Positions 45,802 through 56,405 of a DNA stretch of 63,821 nt are shown here, one piece after another. The stretch covers positions 124,180 through 188,000 of the forward strand of contig NC_135823.1 of the NCBI RefSeq assembly GCF_964213995.1, written 5' to 3'. Below the pieces are notes generated by a model. It did no database searches and was not told the DNA's origin. It was given only the letters and a program-made list of their open reading frames with translations. A program made the translations under genes and the position numbers. This DNA comes from Mustelus asterias (lineage: Eukaryota). Every line of letters begins with the position of its first letter. Within the stretch, counting starts at the first letter, position 1.

Positions 45802-46378
45802 ATGGTCTCGCCAATGTACCATGCCTTGGGGTATCCTTTCCTGCGGGTAGACAATGTTGGCCGAGTCGCAAGAGTATGTACTGTGTACCTGGTGGATGGT
45901 ACTCTCACGTGAGATGGTGGCATCCATGTTGATGATCCGGCACATCTTGCACAGTTTGCTGTGGAAATACTCACTGTATGGTGTCGTGGTCACTGTTATC
46001 CTGAAGGCTGGCTAGTTTGCTGCGAAAAATGGTCTGTTTGAGGTTGCGCGGTTGTTTGAAGACAAGTAGTGGGGGAGTGGGGATGGCCTTGGCGAGATGT
46101 TCGTCTTCATCAATGACATGTTGAAGGCTCCGGAGAAGATGTCGTAGTTTCTCCGCTCCGGGTAAGTACTGGACGATGAAGGGTACTCTGCCCGCCGTCT
46201 CCCGTGTTTGCCTTCTGAGGAGGTCAGTGCGTTTTTTTGCTGTGGCGCGTCAGAACTGTCGATGGATGAGTCGAGCGACATATCCTGTTCTTACAATGGC
46301 GTCTTGCAGCAACTGTAGGTTTCTGTTGTGTTCCTCCCCATCTGAGCAGATCCTCTGTATACGGAGGGCTTGCCCATA
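45802..46378 (-). mobile_element. inverted Penelope fragment (RT C-terminus to GIY-YIG)
   Basis: YGQALRIQRICSD..., WYIGETM; duplicates the plus-strand copy. Confidence 0.88.
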
Positions 46379-46957
46379 CGACAACATTCCCCATGACGAC
46401 GGCATTGCTGCAACTGCCTCTGTACTTAACGCCGACAACTGCCAATTTTCAGACGCAATTCTACAACTCATCTGCTTCATCCTGGACCACAACGTCTTCA
46501 TCTTCAACAACCAGTTCTTCATTCAAACACATGGAACAGCCATGGGGACCAAATTCGCACCTCAGTATGCCAACGTTTTCATGCACAAGTTCGAACAAGA
46601 TCTCTTCACCACATAGGACCTTCAATAGATGCTATACACTAGATACATCGATGACATTTTCTTCCTTTGGACTCACAGTGAAACATCAGTGAAACAACTA
46701 CATGATGACATCAACAAGTACCCTCCCACCATTAGACTCACCATGGAGTACTCTCCGGAATCGGTTGCATTCTTGGACACACGCATCTCCATCATGGCCT
46801 GTCACCTCAGCACCTCACTGTACCGCAAGCCCACAGATAACTCACGATGCTCCACTTCTCCAGCTTCCACTCTAAACACGTTAAAGAAGCCATCCCCTAC
46901 GGACAAGTCCTCGGTATACACAGGATCTGCTCAGATAAGGTGGAACACAATAGAAAC

Positions 46958-47686
46958 TGTAAGGAATAATCATTAAGACAAATATGTAAGGAATAATCAT
47001 TAAGACAACATGTATTGGAAGGAATAATTATTAGGACAAGTAGGAGATAATAATTAACATAGAAGAGATAATCACTACTTGAGAAGCTCTCATATATCAC
47101 ATATCTTATTAAGCATACACCTGTACCCTTTTAAGTGCACAATACCTTACCAGGTCAGTACACATGGATACTCACATAAATGAACATAAAGGCTGAAAGA
47201 AGTCAAGCAAACACACAGAAGCTGAAAGTAATTTCTTAAATAAACGCGAGAAAGTCAGACAACGGGAAAAAAGACTTGGCATAGCAGGATGCCCTACAAT
47301 GGTTGAACAAACAACAACCTTGGCTGATTAGACAATAAACTTCAGATAAGAAGGCAAGATGTAACCACAGTGATATCATAGCACATTCATTTGTGACCAA
47401 TCAGAAAGAAGGCAGATAACATAGGTCTAGTAAACCATGGTGGCTAACGAAAAGTGGCCTTGGGGTCTGCAACAAAAAAAGCTTGACTGTAAGATAAGAA
47501 TGATGAAATATGAAGCTAAATGTGGATAAAAAGGACTGTCAGAGCACTGTTTTTTTGGATTCATCTGGAAATCCCGGCTTTACTGAAATGTATTAGCTAA
47601 TAAAGCCTTGCTGCCTGGAAGATCAAGACTCAGACTCTCTATTCTGATTGATGAACTCTTCTTGCCGTCCACGGGGAACCACGGCA
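46958..47686 (+). repeat. 5' LTR (729 bp)
   Basis: direct repeat of 54142-54870; CCAAT at 47397, TATA-like GATAAAA near 47525, AATAAA at 47599. Confidence 0.97.
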
Positions 47687-47690
47687 AATC

Positions 47691-47708
47691 TGGCGCTTGC
47701 GAGAGGGC
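47691..47708 (+). promoter_or_regulatory. primer binding site (imperfect; possibly tRNA-Ser)
   Basis: TGGCGCTTGCGAGAGGGC starts 4 nt after the LTR; tRNA identity from memory and not a perfect match. Confidence 0.65.
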
Positions 47709-48366
47709 AGAGTTGAGGTCTCCCGGTGACTCAACCCCGGAGGGATCGAGGGAGACGGTGGTCCGACCGGAACCGAGAAGTCCCCAGCCGGCCTTCTGTC
47801 AACAAGGTAAGCAGACTTGCATGCATGTAAATCCTTGTTGTCAGAAAGGGGTTTTCGAGGCCTGGCGCACCCGGTTCTCCACTGGTCCTGGATCTCACCT
47901 GCCCAAAAGATAACCTGCATTGGTAAACTTAAAATTGTGTAAAATATTGAGAGACTGAGTCTGATCGGAAGGGTAAATTTTGCATGTAAAAAGCACGCTT
48001 TAGTTTTATGTACTGTATTGTCCACGAATGGGTAAAAAGTGAGACGCTACAAAAACCGAACGCTAATTGATGCAATTAGGTTAGTCGAGCGGTTTGGAGC
48101 GGGCTTCCAGGTTACGACTTGCCCAAGGAGAGTAAGTGTAGGCAAGCCTGCCAGTCCAAACCTACCCAGGACCTCGGAGAGAGAGACGTCAGCCGAGAGG
48201 AAGGAGAGATCTAGGAGAGATTGGTCTCCTACCTGATATAGTAATTAAGGACCTACGTTGATCGCCGGAAGAAGAGAGGGGATAGGGAGTGAAATAAAGT
48301 AAAGGGGTTACAAGGAGAAGCCTGAAAAGGTTGATCTGGAATAGCGGTGTAAGCAGCTGTTGGTAA

Positions 48367-49932
48367 ATGTGGAGTGTAAAGCAGGATCACGACAGTGATG
48401 AATCACGTAGGAATATTGCAGTAATAGATTTCTTAAGTAGTGGTGTTAACACACATTTTTTTAGAGAAGATCTAGTAAAAATAGTTGGAGGAGGTTTTAG
48501 GGAGTGGTATGAGGGTGAGAGAAATGCCCTGCTAAGAAGAATAACTGAAGTAGTTAATTTGGAGGAAGTGAATAAGGAGTGGCCATACATAAATTGGGAC
48601 GAAATAATATACAAAAATTGGACGAGTGAAGCAGTAGAAGAAACATTGACAGAATTAATAGAAGAAATCAGACCAAGTAAGGCTCTGTTGGAAATCAGTG
48701 AGCAAGTGGAGGCATATTATCCACTAGCAGAAGAAAAAGGATTATCACCAGGAGAGGGAAGAACAGGGAAGCAAATACTGAGACCTCGGTTGGAAATACA
48801 GGTGTCAGTCAGGGAAGTGCAGTGGGAAGATAGTCCAAGGACAGAAAAAGGGAAAACAGTATATCGCATAAAAATAACAATAGTGCCAAATACCAACATA
48901 TCAGAAAATATTAAGCCGCAAGGCAGTGCAAAGAAACAGAACATGCCATATCAAATTAAGACACCGGTGGAAATTCTGGGAGAAAAGTACCCAGCCCTGA
49001 AAGGAAACATAGCCCATATCTCCCAAAAATGGACCAAAAGAACAAGTAAATTAAACACACAGTGGCCAGAGGGAGGCACCTGGTGTACAGAAAGATGTGA
49101 GGATCAGAAAGGACTGGTAAAGAACTATAAACTAAGGGATAAATCACAAAAGAGAAATCAGAAAAGAAGAAAAGAAATGGAGATACTAACATTATTTGAA
49201 AAGGAAGGAAAAGAGAAAAAGCGCATATGGAAAATGCAAATGCCAGTTCAGATTCAGGAAAAGGAAAAATTGAAAGACCCAAATATAGCCCCGCCCCCTT
49301 ATAAGGAAAACCAAGATTTTGCTGGGCTGTATCCAGTAATAAAGGGGACAGTGAATTTTGAGGGGGAATATGAAGAAAGGGACATGACCCGCGAACAATG
49401 GGCAAAGCAGGAGGTGGAAAGAAAGGTAAAAAGGGAAGAAGAAGGTGCTAAAGTGGAAGGAGAACTGGATAACATACGCCGTATGAGGCAAGAGTTAGAG
49501 GAAGAGATGGTTCGGGTAAGGGTGTTAAAATGGGCAAATAGAAAAATGGAGGAAGAACAGAGTAAAAAAGGTGAGGAGGCAGTGGACAGTGAGGCAAGGT
49601 GTGAAGAGGAGGAGGGTAAGGAAGATTGGGATGAAAAATGTAAATATAGCAAGGGAAGTGCAGGAGGAAAAGGACAGGGACAGGGAAAAGCACCCTATCA
49701 GCACCAGAGGGGACAAAACCAAGGATATAATCAAGGCCCCAGGCAGGGAGGACCACCTGGCCCTCCAGGGATATGCTGGGGATGTGGGGAAGCAGGACAC
49801 ATAAAGAGGAATTGTCCCCAAAACAGCTATAGACAAGGAGGTCAACAACAAATGAGTCAGCAAATGATGCAAGTGCAAACCAGTGACTGCCCAATGAGTC
49901 AGGGGCCAGTAAATCACCAGAGTTTCCTATAG
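48367..49932 (+). CDS. gag: gag-derived ORF (N-terminal extension, MA-like region, PPPY late domain, coiled coil, CCHC knuckle; no recognisable capsid)
   Basis: WPEGGT MA-like block, APPPY, CWGCGEAGHIKRNC; ends in a TAG-G readthrough-type context. Confidence 0.85.
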   Translation: MWSVKQDHDSDESRRNIAVIDFLSSGVNTHFFREDLVKIVGGGFREWYEGERNALLRRITEVVNLEEVNKEWPYINWDEIIYKNWTSEAVEETLTELIEEIRPSKALLEISEQVEAYYPLAEEKGLSPGEGRTGKQILRPRLEIQVSVREVQWEDSPRTEKGKTVYRIKITIVPNTNISENIKPQGSAKKQNMPYQIKTPVEILGEKYPALKGNIAHISQKWTKRTSKLNTQWPEGGTWCTERCEDQKGLVKNYKLRDKSQKRNQKRRKEMEILTLFEKEGKEKKRIWKMQMPVQIQEKEKLKDPNIAPPPYKENQDFAGLYPVIKGTVNFEGEYEERDMTREQWAKQEVERKVKREEEGAKVEGELDNIRRMRQELEEEMVRVRVLKWANRKMEEEQSKKGEEAVDSEARCEEEEGKEDWDEKCKYSKGSAGGKGQGQGKAPYQHQRGQNQGYNQGPRQGGPPGPPGICWGCGEAGHIKRNCPQNSYRQGGQQQMSQQMMQVQTSDCPMSQGPVNHQSFL

Positions 49933-50330
49933 GGAGGCCCAGAGAACCCCGAAATGGTAGGCCAGTATGTAAAATAACGGACACAGCAAATCAAGAACCT
50001 ATAATCAATGTTAGAATAGGGGGGGTTGAGATCCCCATGATGATAGATACAGGAGCTACTTGTACGTGCATACAAGAAAAATATGCAGGACACCTACCAT
50101 TGTCAGGTCAGTTTGTAAAAACTATGGGGTTCTCGGGGAAAGCAGTATTGACTCAAATGACGATGCCGGTGCCTATCACCGTTGGAAACAAAACCACTCA
50201 TGTGCCTGTGTTAGTATGCAATAAAACACCACTGAATTTGTTAGGCCGGGATGCAATCTTAGGGTTAGGGTTAAAATTAGAGTGTACAACTCAAGGAATT
50301 AATCTGACGGGCATGTACGTAATTAGGGTA
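49933..50330 (+). pseudogene. pro: retroviral aspartic protease, frameshifted relative to gag
   Basis: EPIINV..MMIDTGA..NLLGRD. Confidence 0.92.
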
Positions 50331-50339
50331 AGGGGAGAA

Positions 50340-50825
50340 GAGTGGGCCAATGTATATTGGCTAGGGGACATAGAAGAACAAATTAAAAAGCAGGTATGGG
50401 AAATTTGGGGGACATTTATAGAGGCACAGATTCCAGACGCCGAATGGCCAAAAACTGAACTACATAGCACAATGATTTTTGATAAAATACAACAGTCAGA
50501 GATACAGGAGAAGTGGAATAAAGAGGCAGGACAAGAACAGGAAATAAATTCAGACAGCATTTTAATCGGACCAGAGGGAGCAGCCCTCACAATTAGAAAG
50601 AATGAATGGGTCAGAAAATGGTTCTCAGTGCCTGAGACAGAACCACATGTTACGCTAAAGGTGAATCCTGATTACAGACCAAAGGATTTGGGATTTATGA
50701 CGTTTAGGGCACAGGAACTGGAATTTATTAAAGCAAACAATGAGAATATTTGGATGTCGACTGACGGACAAATGATGAAAATATCTGTTAATGCAAGGAT
50801 GACTGGAAGAACAAAAGAGGTAAAA
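50340..50825 (+). CDS. 2H phosphoesterase-like domain within pol
   Basis: two HxT motifs, LHSTM (His codon at 50463) and PHVTL (His codon at 50646), in frame with protease. Confidence 0.75.
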
Positions 50826-50855
50826 ATAGAGTTAAAAGATAAAGAAGTAGAGTAA

Positions 50856-51857
50856 GAATGGAGAGCAAAGTTAGAAAAAGATTTAGATTCTCTCCCTGAG
50901 GAATTGTGGTCAAAGAATGACACAGATGTAGGCAAAGTTAAAACAGCTACCCCAGTCGAAGTAAAATTGAAGCCAGGATGTCAAGGACCTTATAATCCAC
51001 AATATCCAATCAAGGCAGCAGCAGTAATCATAGAAATCATAGAAACCCTACAGTGCAGAAGGAGGCCATTCGGCCCATCGAGTCTGCACCGACCACAATC
51101 CCACCCAGGCCCTACCCCCACATATTTTACCCGCTAATCCACGCATCTCAGAACTCTAAGGGGCAATTTTTAACCTGGCCAATCAACCTAACCCGCACAT
51201 CTTTGGACTGGCATAAGAGAAACAATCAGAGGATTAGTAGACGCAGGGGTGTTAAAAGAAACCCGAAGTAAATGTAACACACCCTTATTACCAGTTAAAA
51301 AGGCAGATGGGGAAAAGTGGAGGTTAGTACACGACCTGAGAGCAGTTAATGAAGTAGTTGAAAATATGCCAGTAGAAGTCCCTAACCCCTACACCTTATT
51401 GACTAACATACCGTCTGAAAGCAGATGGTTTACAGTAATAGACTTATGCTCAGCGTTTTTCAGTGTGCCCTTGGCACAAGCGAGTCAGTACTTATTTGCT
51501 TTCAAGTACGAGGGAAAACAGTACACATACAATAGAATGCCACAAGGATTCAAACACTCCCCACATGTATTCAACCAAGTGTTGAGAGCAGATTTGGCAG
51601 GGATACAACTAGAAGGAACACTGATACAATATGTGGATGACTTGTTGTTGTGTACAGAAACAAAGGAACAATGTAGGGAAGAAAGTTTAAAACTGCTAGA
51701 AAAACTGGCGAAAGGAGGACATAAAGTGTCAAGAAAGAAATTACAGTTCTGTCAAAGAAAAGTAGAATACCTTGGAAGGGAAATAACTGTTGGACAAAAA
51801 AGAATAGCTCACCAGCAGATAGAAGCAGTATTGAAAATCCCAAAACCACAGACAGTG
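50856..51857 (+). pseudogene. pol: reverse transcriptase, SINE-interrupted and truncated in the thumb; RNase H and integrase deleted
   Basis: QYPI, NTPLLPVKK, WRLVHDLR, IDLCSAFFS, MPQGFKHSP, YVDD, YLG; upstream TAA at 50853. Confidence 0.95.
51028..51207 (-). mobile_element. 5'-truncated HE1-like SINE in ERV pol
   Basis: removing it restores AAAV-TGIRETIRGLVDAGVL. Confidence 0.9.
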
Positions 51858-52216
51858 AGCACTAAAGCTATGACCAAATTACAAAATCTAAGGAAAAAAA
51901 TGCATGACAATGCTGGATTTGGCCATAATATTTGGAATTGGCTTGATAATGTATTCGGACAATGGGGAGCATGGTTGCAAAGGCAGGGGTTATAATAGTA
52001 GTAGTAATAATCAAAATTGGACTAATCTTTTGTTGTTTACTGCCTGCTTTGAGATCTTTTATTACCAGACTAATGATGCGACAAATGGTAGTGCGAATGG
52101 AGAATGAACAAATCCCCGAACAAGAAGTCCAGGAATGGGGTCAAGTTGAATTACCCCCACCGAATAGACTCATGATAACTTTGATTGAGACTGACGCTCC
52201 TTGTTTTGCAATGTAG
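51858..52216 (+). pseudogene. env: env-1 remnant: C-terminal part of a TM subunit
   Basis: TKAMTKLQNLR..NAG..WNWLDNVFGQWGAW / AKAGVIIVVVII..LIFCCLLPALR..QM; 1-nt frameshift near 51975; PPT-like tract at 52230-52243. Confidence 0.8.
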
Positions 52217-52529
52217 CACGAAAGACTGCAAAAGAGGGGAAGATCTGTTTCAATGCGTTAAAAGAAGATGGAAATTTGATTTGTATACCAGTGATCAGTA
52301 TTTTCCTTCCTCAGGAACAAGGACTGTTGACACAAACTCTACCGCTCAAGTTCATGGTTCACCGAATTCGACCCAGGAAACTGAGCTATCAACTGAACTG
52401 ACAAAACAAGAGAAATCACTGAAATTGAAGCTGAAAGACTGTATAAACTAAATAGTAGTAGCGGCGACTAAGCGCGGGAAAAGAATTGCGTAAACTGTGA
52501 TAAATTGTACTCTCCCTCCTTGTGAAAGC

Positions 52530-53815
52530 ATGGGAAAAGTAGGGGTAGGATGGATGGGGATAATACTAGTACTTAGTATGGGGGGTGGCAAGAGTAAAAA
52601 TGAACAGGAAGAAGACAGATCGCATATAAATACTTACCTATATATGTCATATATGTATGCAGAAAGATTGAACATAAGCAAATGTTGGGTCTGCACTCAT
52701 GTCCCAAGCCATTCCCAAGAAGGCCTACCACTCCAGTCTCTCCCCTTTCAGATTTCAGAAACTATAGAATGGATATTGAGACAAAATAAGACAGGGGAAG
52801 GAGGAAACATGACAATGTGGGAGTCAGCTGGGTATAGAATGACCAGGTTTGCTACATGGTACCAACCAACCTACGACCATTCCCAGTTCCCACCTGTACC
52901 GACGGTCCTAAAATCAAATGGACCAGGATCCTTCTGTTTAAAGAAAAATGTGGATGGAGCAAGAGTTGGAGAAAGTAAATGTCAGCAAACTGTAGAATGG
53001 CAACCACCTGTGAAAGATTTAAGTACAGCTGGTATGTTCAAAATAGACTGGACTGAAATATGCAACATCACATCAAACAACGTGTGGGAAGGAAAAGCTG
53101 TACAACCTTGGATGACGTTGGCTGATAACTTTACGGCCTACAATGGAACTTACTTTATATGCGGTACAAAGGCATATCCCTGGCTTCCTGCGAACTGGAC
53201 AGGCTCCTGTTATCTGGGATATGTAGTGCCCTATATACACCACATGCCTTCCCTACGAAGCTACCCTTCGCGAGCAAAACGAACAATCAGTAAGACTGAC
53301 TGGTTCTTTATGATGGCCTTTCCATTACATGGGACAGGAAGAACAGCAAACGAGTTAATTCTGATGGCCACAGCCCTGGAACAACTGGCTAATATCACTG
53401 CAGCTGAAGCTCGATAAACAGGGCAAGCCTTGACAGAAGTATCAGCAGAACTGATGGCAGTCGCACAGTAGCCCTGCAAAATAGACTGGCTTTGGACTAT
53501 CTATTGGCCTCGCAGGGAGGAACATGTGCCATAATTTAACAAGAATGCTGTACTTACATACCAGATAAATCTGAGAATATAACTAACCTTGCAAAGCATA
53601 TCAAGGCACAAGCAGACCAACTCCAAAAGATAGGTCACGAATTCCATGATTATAACCCACCTGGATGGTTAGGATGGGTGGGAAATGGGATGTTTGATTG
53701 GATTTTTAAATCATTTATGTTACTGTTGCTTATAATAGTAGGGATAGCATTAGCAGGATGCTTATGTCAATGTGTAATTAACAGGGCAATGGACAGCATG
53801 TACCATTATCAATAG
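52530..53815 (+). pseudogene. env: env-2: full-length gamma-type envelope with 2 stops and 1 frameshift in TM
   Basis: signal peptide, CWVC, RAKR furin site, fusion peptide, LQNRLALDYLLASQGG ISD, CX6CC, membrane anchor. Confidence 0.93.
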
Positions 53816-54129
53816 TTTGAAAATAAGAGGAGATAATATGACCCTAGATACCATACGCATAGAGGGAAATACTTAAATGATCAAGCAAAATCAAGGAGGG
53901 AGAGATGTGTTAGTACAAAGTGTATGAAATGTATTAATGCAAAAATGTATTTTAATGAACTATCAGGTAAAGGAAATCTGGAGGAGCAGTTCGCAATTAG
54001 GCTATTAATAAACAAAAAGGGATATTGATCCTACACTTAAGCTCCTCCACATTTCGTGAAACCAAACATAACTAAGACATATATTGGGAAAATATATCAA
54101 GAAATAGTTTAGTGAGACAATGATGTCTC

Positions 54130-54139
54130 AAAGAGGGGA
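54130..54139 (+). promoter_or_regulatory. polypurine tract
   Basis: AAAGAGGGGA 2 nt before the 3' LTR. Confidence 0.9.
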
Positions 54140-54141
54140 TA

Positions 54142-54870
54142 TGTAAGGAATAATCATTAAGACAAATATGTAAGGAATAATCATTAAGACAACATATATT
54201 GGAAGGAATAATTATTAGGACAAGTAGGAGATAATAATTAACATAGAAGAGATAATCACTACTTGAGAAGCTCTCATATATCACATATCTTATTAAGCAT
54301 ACACCTGTACCCTTTTAAGTGCACAATACCTTACCAGGTCAGTACACATGGATACTCACGTAAATGAACATAAAGGCTGAAAGAAGTCAAGCAAACACAC
54401 AGAAGCTGAAAGTAATTTCTTAAATAAACGCGAGAAAGTCAGACAACGGGAAAAAAGACTTGGCATAGCAGGATGCCCTACAATGGTTGAACAAACAACA
54501 ACCTTGGCTGGTTAGACAATAAACTTCAGATAAGAAGGCAAGATGTAACCACAGTGATATCATAGCACATTCATTAGTGACCAATCAGAAAGAAGGCAGA
54601 TAACATAGGTCAAGTAAACCATGGTGGCTAACGAAAAGTGGCCTTGGGGTCTGCAACAAAAAAAGCTTGACTGTAAGATAAGAATGATGAAATATGAAGC
54701 TAAATGTGGATAAAAAGGACTGTCAGAGCACTGGTTTTTTGGATTCATCTGGAAATCCCGGCTTTATTGAAATATGTTAGCTAATAAAGCCTTGCTGCCT
54801 GGAAGATCAAGACGCAGACTCTCTATTCTGATTGATGAACTCTTCTTGCCGTCCACGGGGAACCACGGCA
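54142..54870 (+). repeat. 3' LTR (729 bp)
   Basis: ~10 substitutions relative to the 5' LTR by manual comparison. Confidence 0.97.
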
Positions 54871-56405
54871 AAACCTACAGACGCTGAAAGATGCAAGCGT
54901 AAGAACAGGATATGGTGCTCGACTCATCAGTCGACAGTTCCGATGCGCCACAGCGGAAAACCACACCGACCTCCTCAGAACACACACACGGGACACGGTG
55001 GACAGAGTACCCTTCAGTGTCCAGTACTTTCCCGGAGCGGAGAAGCTACGACATATTCTCCGGAGCCTTCAACATGTCATTGATGAAGACGAAAATCACG
55101 CCAAGGCGATCGCCTCACCTCCACTTGCCTTCAAACAACCGCGCAACCTCAAACAGACCACTGTTCATAGCAACCTACCCAGCATTCAGGAGAACAGCAA
55201 CAACAACACAACACAGTCCCGCCACAGCAACCTTGCAAGACGTGATGGATCATCAACACGGGTGTCATCATCTCGCGTGAGAACATCATCCACCAGGTAC
55301 ACGGTACATACTCTTGCAACTCGGCCAACGTAATCTACCTGATACGCTGCAGAAAAGGATGTCCCGAGGCATGGTACATTGGGGAGACCATGCAGACGCT
55401 ACGACAATGGATGAATGGACACCACTCGATAATCACCAGGCAGGAGTGTTCTCTTCCTGTCGGAGAACACTTCAGCAGTCAAGGGCATTCACCCTCCGAT
55501 CTTTGGGTAAGCATTCTCCAAGGCGGCCTTCAAGACATACGACAACGCAGAATCGCCGAGCAGAAACTGATAGCCAAGTTCCACACATATGAAGGCGGCC
55601 TCAACCGGGATCTTGTGTTCATGGCACACTACCTGTAACCCCCAGGACTTGCCTGGGCTTGCAAATTCTCACTAACAGTCCTGGCTTGAGACAATTCACA
55701 CCTCTTTAACCCCTCTCTCCACTCACATTGTCTGCACCTGTAAAGACTTGATTACCTGTAAAGACTCGCATTCCAACTATTATCTTGTAAATTGAGTCTG
55801 TGCCTGTATGCCCTGTTTGTGAACCCAATCCTCCACTCACCTTATGAAGGGGCAGTGCTCTGAAAGCTCGTGCTACCAAATAAACCTGTTGGACTTTAAC
55901 CTGGTGTTGTGAGACTTCTTACTGCACTTGATGTGATGAGTACTTTGAAAAGTCTTTATTATTTCTCTTTTTACAACATAACCTAAGTAGAAAACTTGAA
56001 TGTGATTACTCTTTCTGTAATAACCAATTTGAAATATCTCAAAATTTCCTTTGCATTGCGTTGAAGCAACTCAGTATACTGCATGATTTGTGTAGAGATC
56101 CTGAATGTTTCATTACTTCCTGTGGTGGCCATTTTGTCATATTCTTCATGATCTTTGAGATATTTTATGAATACGAAATTGGAAAAAATATTTTTTCCTT
56201 GGTGTGTTTTAATTTTTAATCTTTTGACTTGAAGCCGAGGTTTGATCCATAGTGTAGGAATTGTGTGTTTTGGAGGAAGAACTGACCTCAGAGCTACTGT
56301 TCAATCCTAGTTCCTGATGGAGGGATTCCCTGCCCACATCTGTGTCTTTTGTAGGTATACTGCTAACATCTGTCGCAATGCCAGCCATATTATGATTGTA
56401 GCATG

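Follow-up and report, generated by a model that had tools for sequence, protein, structure and literature searches.

Introduction

To our knowledge, retroviruses have been treated as viruses with one env gene, and recombination of env has been described as replacement. Refrex-1, FeLIX and suppressyn are co-opted or truncated Env genes. Two env ORFs are said to be carried by XTERV1. XTERV1, an endogenous retrovirus (ERV) of Xenopus tropicalis, is epsilon-related (PMC8278194), and the passages on XTERV1 that we examined make no mention of two envs. Chen et al. (bioRxiv 10.1101/2021.11.23.469661) reported class I, epsilon-related ERVs of fish and amphibians with a gamma-type Env; in a term search, their main text made no mention of a second, dual, multiple or tandem env. 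RD114, BaEV, SERV and XtERV-S are env-swap recombinants, and ARTenvV/CARenvV are truncated Env genes, according to the sections consulted of PMC10536682. Two envs in one provirus are not described in the parts considered of PMC10536682, PMC8278194, PMC8672886, PMC4131045, PMC9967133, PMC4977317, PMC13511025, PMC11334065 or bioRxiv 10.1101/2024.07.05.601823. No dual-env shark ERV was found in the literature searched, a scope that excluded most subscription papers, that on XTERV1 (Sinzelle et al. 2011) among them.

Here we analyze a provirus in a 63,821-nt stretch of the genome of Mustelus asterias (the window), for which a first-pass annotation had proposed two unrelated env genes in tandem. 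We consider it probable that this provirus represents a multi-copy class I ERV family (family A) with tandem envs, env1 and env2, in which env2 was gained once from a virus resembling a second family (family B) and both envs were used. Like the ERVs of Chen et al., as far as the main text describes them, family A has a class I pol, a gamma-type Env with an ISD and a CX6CC motif and a cartilaginous-fish host, and its Env and Pol trees disagree through recombination. In those ERVs, however, env was replaced and the genomes are simple, without accessory genes, whereas in family A an env appears to have been added and both kept. Family A also resembles RD114, BaEV, SERV and XtERV-S in having an env from a distant retroviral lineage, although in the sections consulted one env replaces the other and no tandem pair is described. 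Finally, TM stops in young copies of env2 would give an anchorless Env, as in truncated Env genes; unlike syncytins and truncated Envs, env2 is multi-copy, lies in proviruses and is often broken in SU, and no single conserved locus was seen.

Anatomy of the provirus

The window contains a single provirus at 46958-54870, all of whose features lie on the + strand except one insertion with no strand assigned. Its 5' LTR (46958-47686) and 3' LTR (54142-54870) are each 729 nt long and differ by 10 mismatches and 0 gaps in pairwise comparison. The 4-bp sequence AAAC flanks the provirus on both sides (46954-46957 and 54871-54874) and is present only once where the window's other copy of the host repeat has the corresponding site, so the target duplication is real. 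Both envs thus lie within one LTR pair with a clean target site duplication (TSD), as had been claimed, and no internal LTR was found. The host element, which we take to be Penelope-like, carries RT and GIY-YIG-like frames and spans 46000-46957 and 54871-55640, with a second, partial and inverted copy at 46068-46322; CR1-like LINEs, SINEs and simple repeats abound in the rest of the window.

Downstream of the 5' LTR are a primer-binding-site-like stretch (PBS; 47691-47707), which starts with TGG, is similar in sister families and is presumably of the tRNA-Ser type, and a predicted splice-donor-like site (47801-47812, GT at 47807-47808). The gag gene (48367-49932) has an internal deletion that leaves a 521-aa frame, compared with 885 aa in a sibling, and contains a zinc knuckle; zf-CCHC was the sole Pfam match of Gag. 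The broken pro-pol remnant (49933-51859) comprises protease, a spacer of about 180 aa and an RT core. The spacer (50316-50852) has HST and HVT motifs, which we take to be reminiscent of a 2H phosphoesterase; it had no significant Pfam match, and a single-sequence structure model reached a pLDDT of 38. A SINE-like insertion of 182 nt (51028-51209, strand not assigned) interrupts RT and is covered at very high depth; the siblings examined lack it, and contigs of other runs carry the joint 51027-51210. Among the copies examined the insertion is confined to the window copy, and it postdates integration.

In the siblings, gag and pro-pol are adjacent ORFs in one frame, with a gag amber stop in line with pro-pol, an arrangement listed as a feature of gamma- and epsilonretroviruses in the part consulted of PMC8278194. 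The best PDB matches of RT were MLV-type RTs (E 1e-46 to 3e-49), ahead of foamy-type Pol (3e-29) and HIV-2 (2e-16), and Pfam found MLVIN_C in the pol of a sister family; RT and integrase are therefore closest to class I by PDB and Pfam matches. The LTR pair with TG...CA ends, the short TSD, the PBS and the polypurine tract (PPT; 54130-54141, read from the sequence) are likewise those of a class I (gamma/epsilon-like) provirus.

Comparison with undeleted siblings placed a deletion joint at 51859/51860, where 3,907 nt are missing (the end of RT, RNase H, integrase and env1 codons 1-485) and no microhomology was seen. The same joint occurs in siblings L002-L004. The annotation had described a truncated RT fused to the tail of a TM protein ending at 52216, and this is what we found: RT runs in frame into 51860-52216, the last 119 codons (486-604) of env1, which include the second heptad, a Trp-rich stretch, the anchor and the cytoplasmic tail. 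This segment is about 99% identical in nucleotides to the tail of the full gamma-type env of the siblings, except for a 1-nt deletion near 51975 in the window copy, and the env homology proposed for it therefore holds. Behind it come the first part of an ancestral 3'UTR (52217-52321), the leader of a putative captured cassette (52322-52529), env2 (52530-53815), the 3' end of the cassette (53816-53970) and the resumed 3'UTR (53971-54129). The window env2 encodes a signal peptide, CWVC, RAKR, ISD, CX6CC, anchor and short tail. Its description as a complete gamma-type env was right as to span and type and wrong as to integrity, since this copy has stops at codons 296 (53415-53417) and 337 (53537-53539) and a frameshift from a 1-nt deletion near 53462.

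The tandem layout recurs across family A

When the env1 tail and spacer were used as a DNA query, 40 of 97 candidates were scored as matches. All five fetched siblings of the undeleted class have the layout LTR-gag-pro-pol-env1-env2-LTR over about 11.5-13 kb, and a second deletion class, found in 5 of 10 fully fetched siblings, retains the env1 tail and env2. When places were picked by RT alone and checked against the 84 family-A rows among 135 env2-search matches, 39 of 40 had an env2 match no more than 6 kb downstream (12 with undeleted spacing, 22 with the spacing of the second deletion class and 5 with that of the window); at the fortieth, the env2 match lay 13.5 kb away. The 3' flanks, readable at 41 of 51 loci, represent at least 32 distinct insertions (34 by script, two of which were shortened versions of another). 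In addition, contigs of other runs bridge the env1 tail and env2: X2, from the same organism in another study (51919-53505), and X11 (52052-54099) and X10 (52085-52802), from two other organisms.

These results bear on whether the pair could stem from an assembly error or from a single event in which two nested proviruses formed a chimera. Nothing was found in favor of either; one insertion does recur with the same flank on several unplaced contigs (G000 C1543, C1169, C1035, C269, C929 and C1861), which therefore represent one provirus in a repeated array or redundant contigs. The single LTR pair with its target duplication and no internal LTR speaks against either artifact. Because the siblings are dual-env, their flanks are distinct and independent contigs bridge both genes, we regard both ideas as refuted and barely credible.

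Some copies have been rearranged. In L070 (6666-7882) env1 SU runs into env2 SU across a deletion that took out the spacer, and in L052 and L053 a PBS-like stretch directly follows the 3' LTR, indicating tandem proviruses or rearranged copies. A metagenome scan with protein P0001 found no locus.

Two distant gamma-type envelopes

In undeleted siblings env1 encodes a signal peptide, CxxC in SU, a furin site, ISD, CX6CC and an anchor, and so is gamma-type; this was also true for env2, which matched Pfam TLV_coat with E 8e-4 in the window (5' part) and E 7e-19 in a sibling. The two envs had been called unrelated, without visible similarity. This stands for the SUs, between which there was no likeness (310 of 500 shuffles scored as high). 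It does not stand for TM, where the ectodomain stretch is 34-36% identical; identity was 47% over 45 aa from the furin site to CX6CC and 31% over 48 aa beyond CX6CC, with 0 of 500 shuffles as high in each case. Judged by their sequences, env1 and env2 are distant homologues.

In a TM tree (61 rows, 148 columns, LG+G4; six chosen proteins without the motif were dropped), env1 and env2 fall far apart. A-env1 groups with its closest sisters (support 98/98) and A-env2 with family B and one unnamed protein (100/97), with a bootstrap that was not fully settled. Local duplication of one env was rejected as the origin of the pair, since an AU test excluded a single env1+env2 clade (p=3e-64).

Single-env relatives and the source of env2

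Searches with env1 recovered family A and relatives at 75-86% identity, and searches with env2 recovered family A and relatives at 49-69%. All 16 fetched env1-type loci outside family A lack env2 and have env1 as their only env, and their RT, where covered by the sequence fetched, is 84-93% identical to that of family A. In the nine sister loci inspected, env1 is followed by a 3'UTR of about 370-400 nt, then by PPT and LTR. Named relatives of the sister-family Env indicate a shark host, the nearest being a Mustelus asterias protein (96%), with catsharks next. Conversely, all 28 divergent env2-type loci fetched lack env1, and 26 of them have integrase homology upstream. These make up family B, whose RT is 42-50% identical to that of family A and of which one copy is a whole, 8.8-kb single-env provirus. 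Among the fetched env2-type loci, including 40 divergent loci of 135 matches, all those above 70% identity belong to family A and all those at or below 69% to family B.

One of the single-env groups, family C, is large and very young, accounts for about 130 of 150 env1-search matches and has close catshark relatives (Env 72-81% identical to the C query). In L111, L114, L116 and other family C copies, an in-frame deletion where pol and env overlap has apparently fused the two into one continuous frame of about 1,977 aa; such copies recur at many places.

In an RT tree (24 rows, rooted on family B, a distant and composition-skewed outgroup), the dual-env copies of A form a single clade (100/100) whose sister is single-env A', and single-env C branches outside both. 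Because dual-env A is nested among single-env groups, the tree calls for one gain of env2, against at least two losses. The opposite order, a dual-env ancestor whose sister families lost env2, draws on the dependence of the RT root on the distant outgroup, and env loss is common in ERVs. It would require two or more losses instead of one gain; moreover, both sister groups share a continuous 3'UTR, including about 33 nt missing from A, and in the TM tree env2 lies inside the diversity of family B. We consider this order very improbable. The trees set against each other thus agree with the earlier suggestion that the second env was captured by recombination: env1 goes with its sisters, env2 falls inside a distant family and A-RT sits among single-env groups. 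The single-env sister and donor-type families and a split 3'UTR, described below, point the same way. It is likely, from these sequence comparisons, that the source of env2 was a different retrovirus family present in this genome.

The donor itself would be an unsampled B-like relative, because the env2 signal peptide and the cassette ends match no sampled family B copy. DNA likeness of the cassette to sampled family B extends over 52622-53793, and the leader (52322-52529) shows no likeness to sisters or sampled family B. When the leader was used to look for a closer donor, the best 40 of 94 candidates comprised one self-match and 39 matches at 81-82%, and these were family A places as far as recognized. 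A family B integrase tail within 52317-52640 was considered and dropped, as there was no significant alignment. At the other end, 53893-53919 weakly resembles family B at its PPT and the beginning of its LTR; 17 and 35 of 1000 shuffles scored as high, and we take the likeness as a hint.

Insertion site and predicted splice sites

The 3'UTR of the single-env sisters is split in family A. Nucleotides 66-107 of the sister 3'UTR correspond to window 52282-52321, and nucleotides 140-279 to 53971-54083; for the closest sister 0 of 1000 shuffles scored as high in each alignment, and for two other sisters 1-15 of 1000. Between these two parts, 53816-53965 shows no alignment with the 3'UTR of the sisters. 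Given where the sister 3'UTR is split, about 1.65 kb was inserted right behind a pyrimidine-rich motif with AG at 52313-52314. Single-env sisters already carry this acceptor-like motif, and 13 of 14 dual-env copies showed it. In a strict acceptor scan it was the sole match in a sister provirus and fell below threshold in A copies; because the threshold missed it there, the scan was not used as a ranking. Of 16 copies, dual-env and single-env alike, 13 showed the donor-like site at 47807 (the three misses being one changed copy, one misplaced anchor and the distant family).

Between the acceptor-like motif and the env2 start, a distance of about 215 nt in which about 5 AUGs are expected, there are 0 in the older lineages L063, L066, L067 and L098/L120, which count as one ancestral observation rather than several. 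From these motifs we infer that env2 of family A was expressed from a spliced mRNA. For a zebrafish ERV, a spliced env mRNA was demonstrated by RACE (PMC8672886, part consulted). No leader GT..AG joint appeared among the joints listed for contigs of seven runs, none recorded as RNA, which is uninformative either way.

Several other features of this region were considered. A duplicated PPT at 52228-52243, or a duplication of the UTR start around env2, was not supported (328 of 1000 shuffles as high), and folding of the RNA at 52052-52340 gave z=+0.89, no sign of a structured element. In the single-env sisters L101-L116 a conserved acceptor-like motif lies about 110 nt past the env stop, with no long ORF behind it. 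Across the deep split in family A, synonymous divergence in the env1 anchor and tail (51980-52216) is about three times lower than elsewhere, and this segment may contain an overlapping cis element. Three independent deletions end at 51860, 51916 and about 52052 (run X11), all short of the acceptor.

Selection on both envelopes

Between old sublineages of family A, dN/dS was mostly 0.05-0.2 for both envs at dS of about 0.5, like pol. For L061 and L067, dN/dS was 0.05 in RT, 0.09 in RH-IN, 0.15 (0.09-0.22) in env1 SU, 0.05 in the env1 TM ectodomain, 0.18 (0.11-0.27) in env2 SU, 0.10 (0.05-0.23) in the env2 TM ectodomain and 0.08 in the env2 anchor and tail, with dS of 0.46-0.65 for all parts except the short env2 anchor and tail. 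Comparisons of L066 and L063 with L067 agreed (env2 SU 0.13-0.16, TM 0.11). Pairs with L070 gave 0.25-0.37 for env2 SU and 0.12-0.16 for env2 TM, and RH-IN ranged over 0.08-0.34 among pairs. For env2 SU the values were weaker across some pairs (0.32-0.58), among them L066 with L061 or L063 (0.58 and 0.47). The env1 anchor and tail, at 0.6-0.84 and low dS, counts against constraint. The deep values come from few pairs with shared branches, mostly across the L067/L070 split, and close pairs are uninformative.

In old A copies the env2 TM frame is open, and the older lineages have conserved its ectodomain, CX6CC, anchor and tail (dN/dS 0.08-0.19 in deep pairs). In L067 and in L070 the aligned parts of the LTR pair are about 99% identical, so most of the sublineage divergence predates integration. 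Among 15 copies with both genes, none has both frames unbroken, one has env1 unbroken and two have env2 without a stop or shift; such damage is expected of aged proviruses. Thus both envs evolved under purifying selection on the same genome, as measured pairwise between old A sublineages with few independent pairs. Purifying selection shows a working protein and is not proof of an entry role. Because it acted on both envs between old branches, it is likely that the ancestral virus made two different cell-entry proteins.

This selection might instead have arisen in a single-env donor virus, with env2 a passenger whose versions were swapped in repeatedly by recombination. Recombination does occur within family A: L118 and the C1 copy differ from L061 by two diverged env1 SU types (dS about 0.65) on A backbones that are 98-99% identical, a mosaic among otherwise close copies (dS 0.65 vs 0.05). 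The true donor, too, is not among the sampled copies. Across the L067 split, however, env2 dS (0.43-0.55) tracks that of RT (0.41-0.56) and env1 (0.52-0.65). A-env2 also forms one clade, and the fetched env2-type loci divide by identity into family A and family B. We think a passenger role quite improbable, less so than an ancestral dual-env genome.

A probable later burst of defective copies

The window copy probably belongs to a late defective burst. The stop at env2 codon 337 occurs in 37 of 51 loci and that at codon 296 in 30 of 51, a set in which near kin of the window copy are over-represented, and the abundant young copies mostly lack integrase and env1. Given these TM stops and losses, the young copies spread without working envs. 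In family C the pol and env frames are long and open and the LTRs 99.5-100% identical, and it is likely that intact relatives helped the env-defective young clade in trans. We found no single conserved open locus of the kind expected for a syncytin-like co-opted env; env2 is multi-copy and, in the window, broken.

The young copies raise the question of whether env2 is an accessory surface or secreted protein, which blocks receptors against family B or dampens immunity through its ISD, rather than a second entry protein. Mammals have soluble Env interference factors, and the TM stops common to the young clade would give a soluble form. The amplified deletion classes also drop env1 and keep env2, and SU variants among 28 young insertions had a pN/pS of 0.53 (private p=0.016, shared p=0.19), a value biased downward because the choice of loci favored the highest protein score in SU. 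Five different SU stop variants among the young copies argue against this role, as does the AUG that the young clade gained upstream of env2, and the parts of env2 conserved in older lineages are those expected of a membrane fusion protein. We therefore regard an accessory role as unlikely, although it is the strongest of the alternatives considered here.

Discussion

The preferred explanation for family A, that env2 was gained once by recombination and that both envs were expressed and used, is likely. Under it, env2 would have arrived by template switching in particles that had packaged an A-like together with a B-like RNA. Its mRNA would be spliced from the leader donor at 47807 to the 3'UTR acceptor at 52314, and that of env1 would use an acceptor further upstream. 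Two kinds of Env trimer on cells and virions could then have provided a second receptor or route of entry, such as one into cells that resident env1-type viruses had already closed off. Later, a sub-clade with TM stops in env2 and, mostly, pol-env1 deletions would have multiplied without working envs, helped in trans. With somewhat less confidence than in the family-level explanation, we favor a naturally two-envelope infectious shark retrovirus, in which env2 sat behind an existing acceptor and both envs were kept working over a dS of about 0.5.

None of the results that would have refuted the original description of this locus was obtained: undeleted siblings with full gag-pro-pol-env1-env2 were recovered, contigs of X2, X10 and X11 cross the junction between the env1 tail and env2, and the presence of env2 at nearly all RT-picked places rules out a one-off chimera.

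If the account of XTERV1 is right, family A would be a second, independent case, for which parent-type families are at hand and both genes show selection. A lineage that kept a pair of Envs of distantly related clades under selection would mean that env addition can be stable, and the dual-env layout is a candidate intermediate for env swapping, in which an env is added and one is then lost. An existing 3' acceptor would offer simple retroviruses a route to gain genes in their 3' region. With recipient-type and donor-type single-env families in one genome, this would be a dissectable case of env addition, if true, and not of replacement. The parent-type families and the many copies in one genome make the order of events, selection and env-less spread testable from natural copies.
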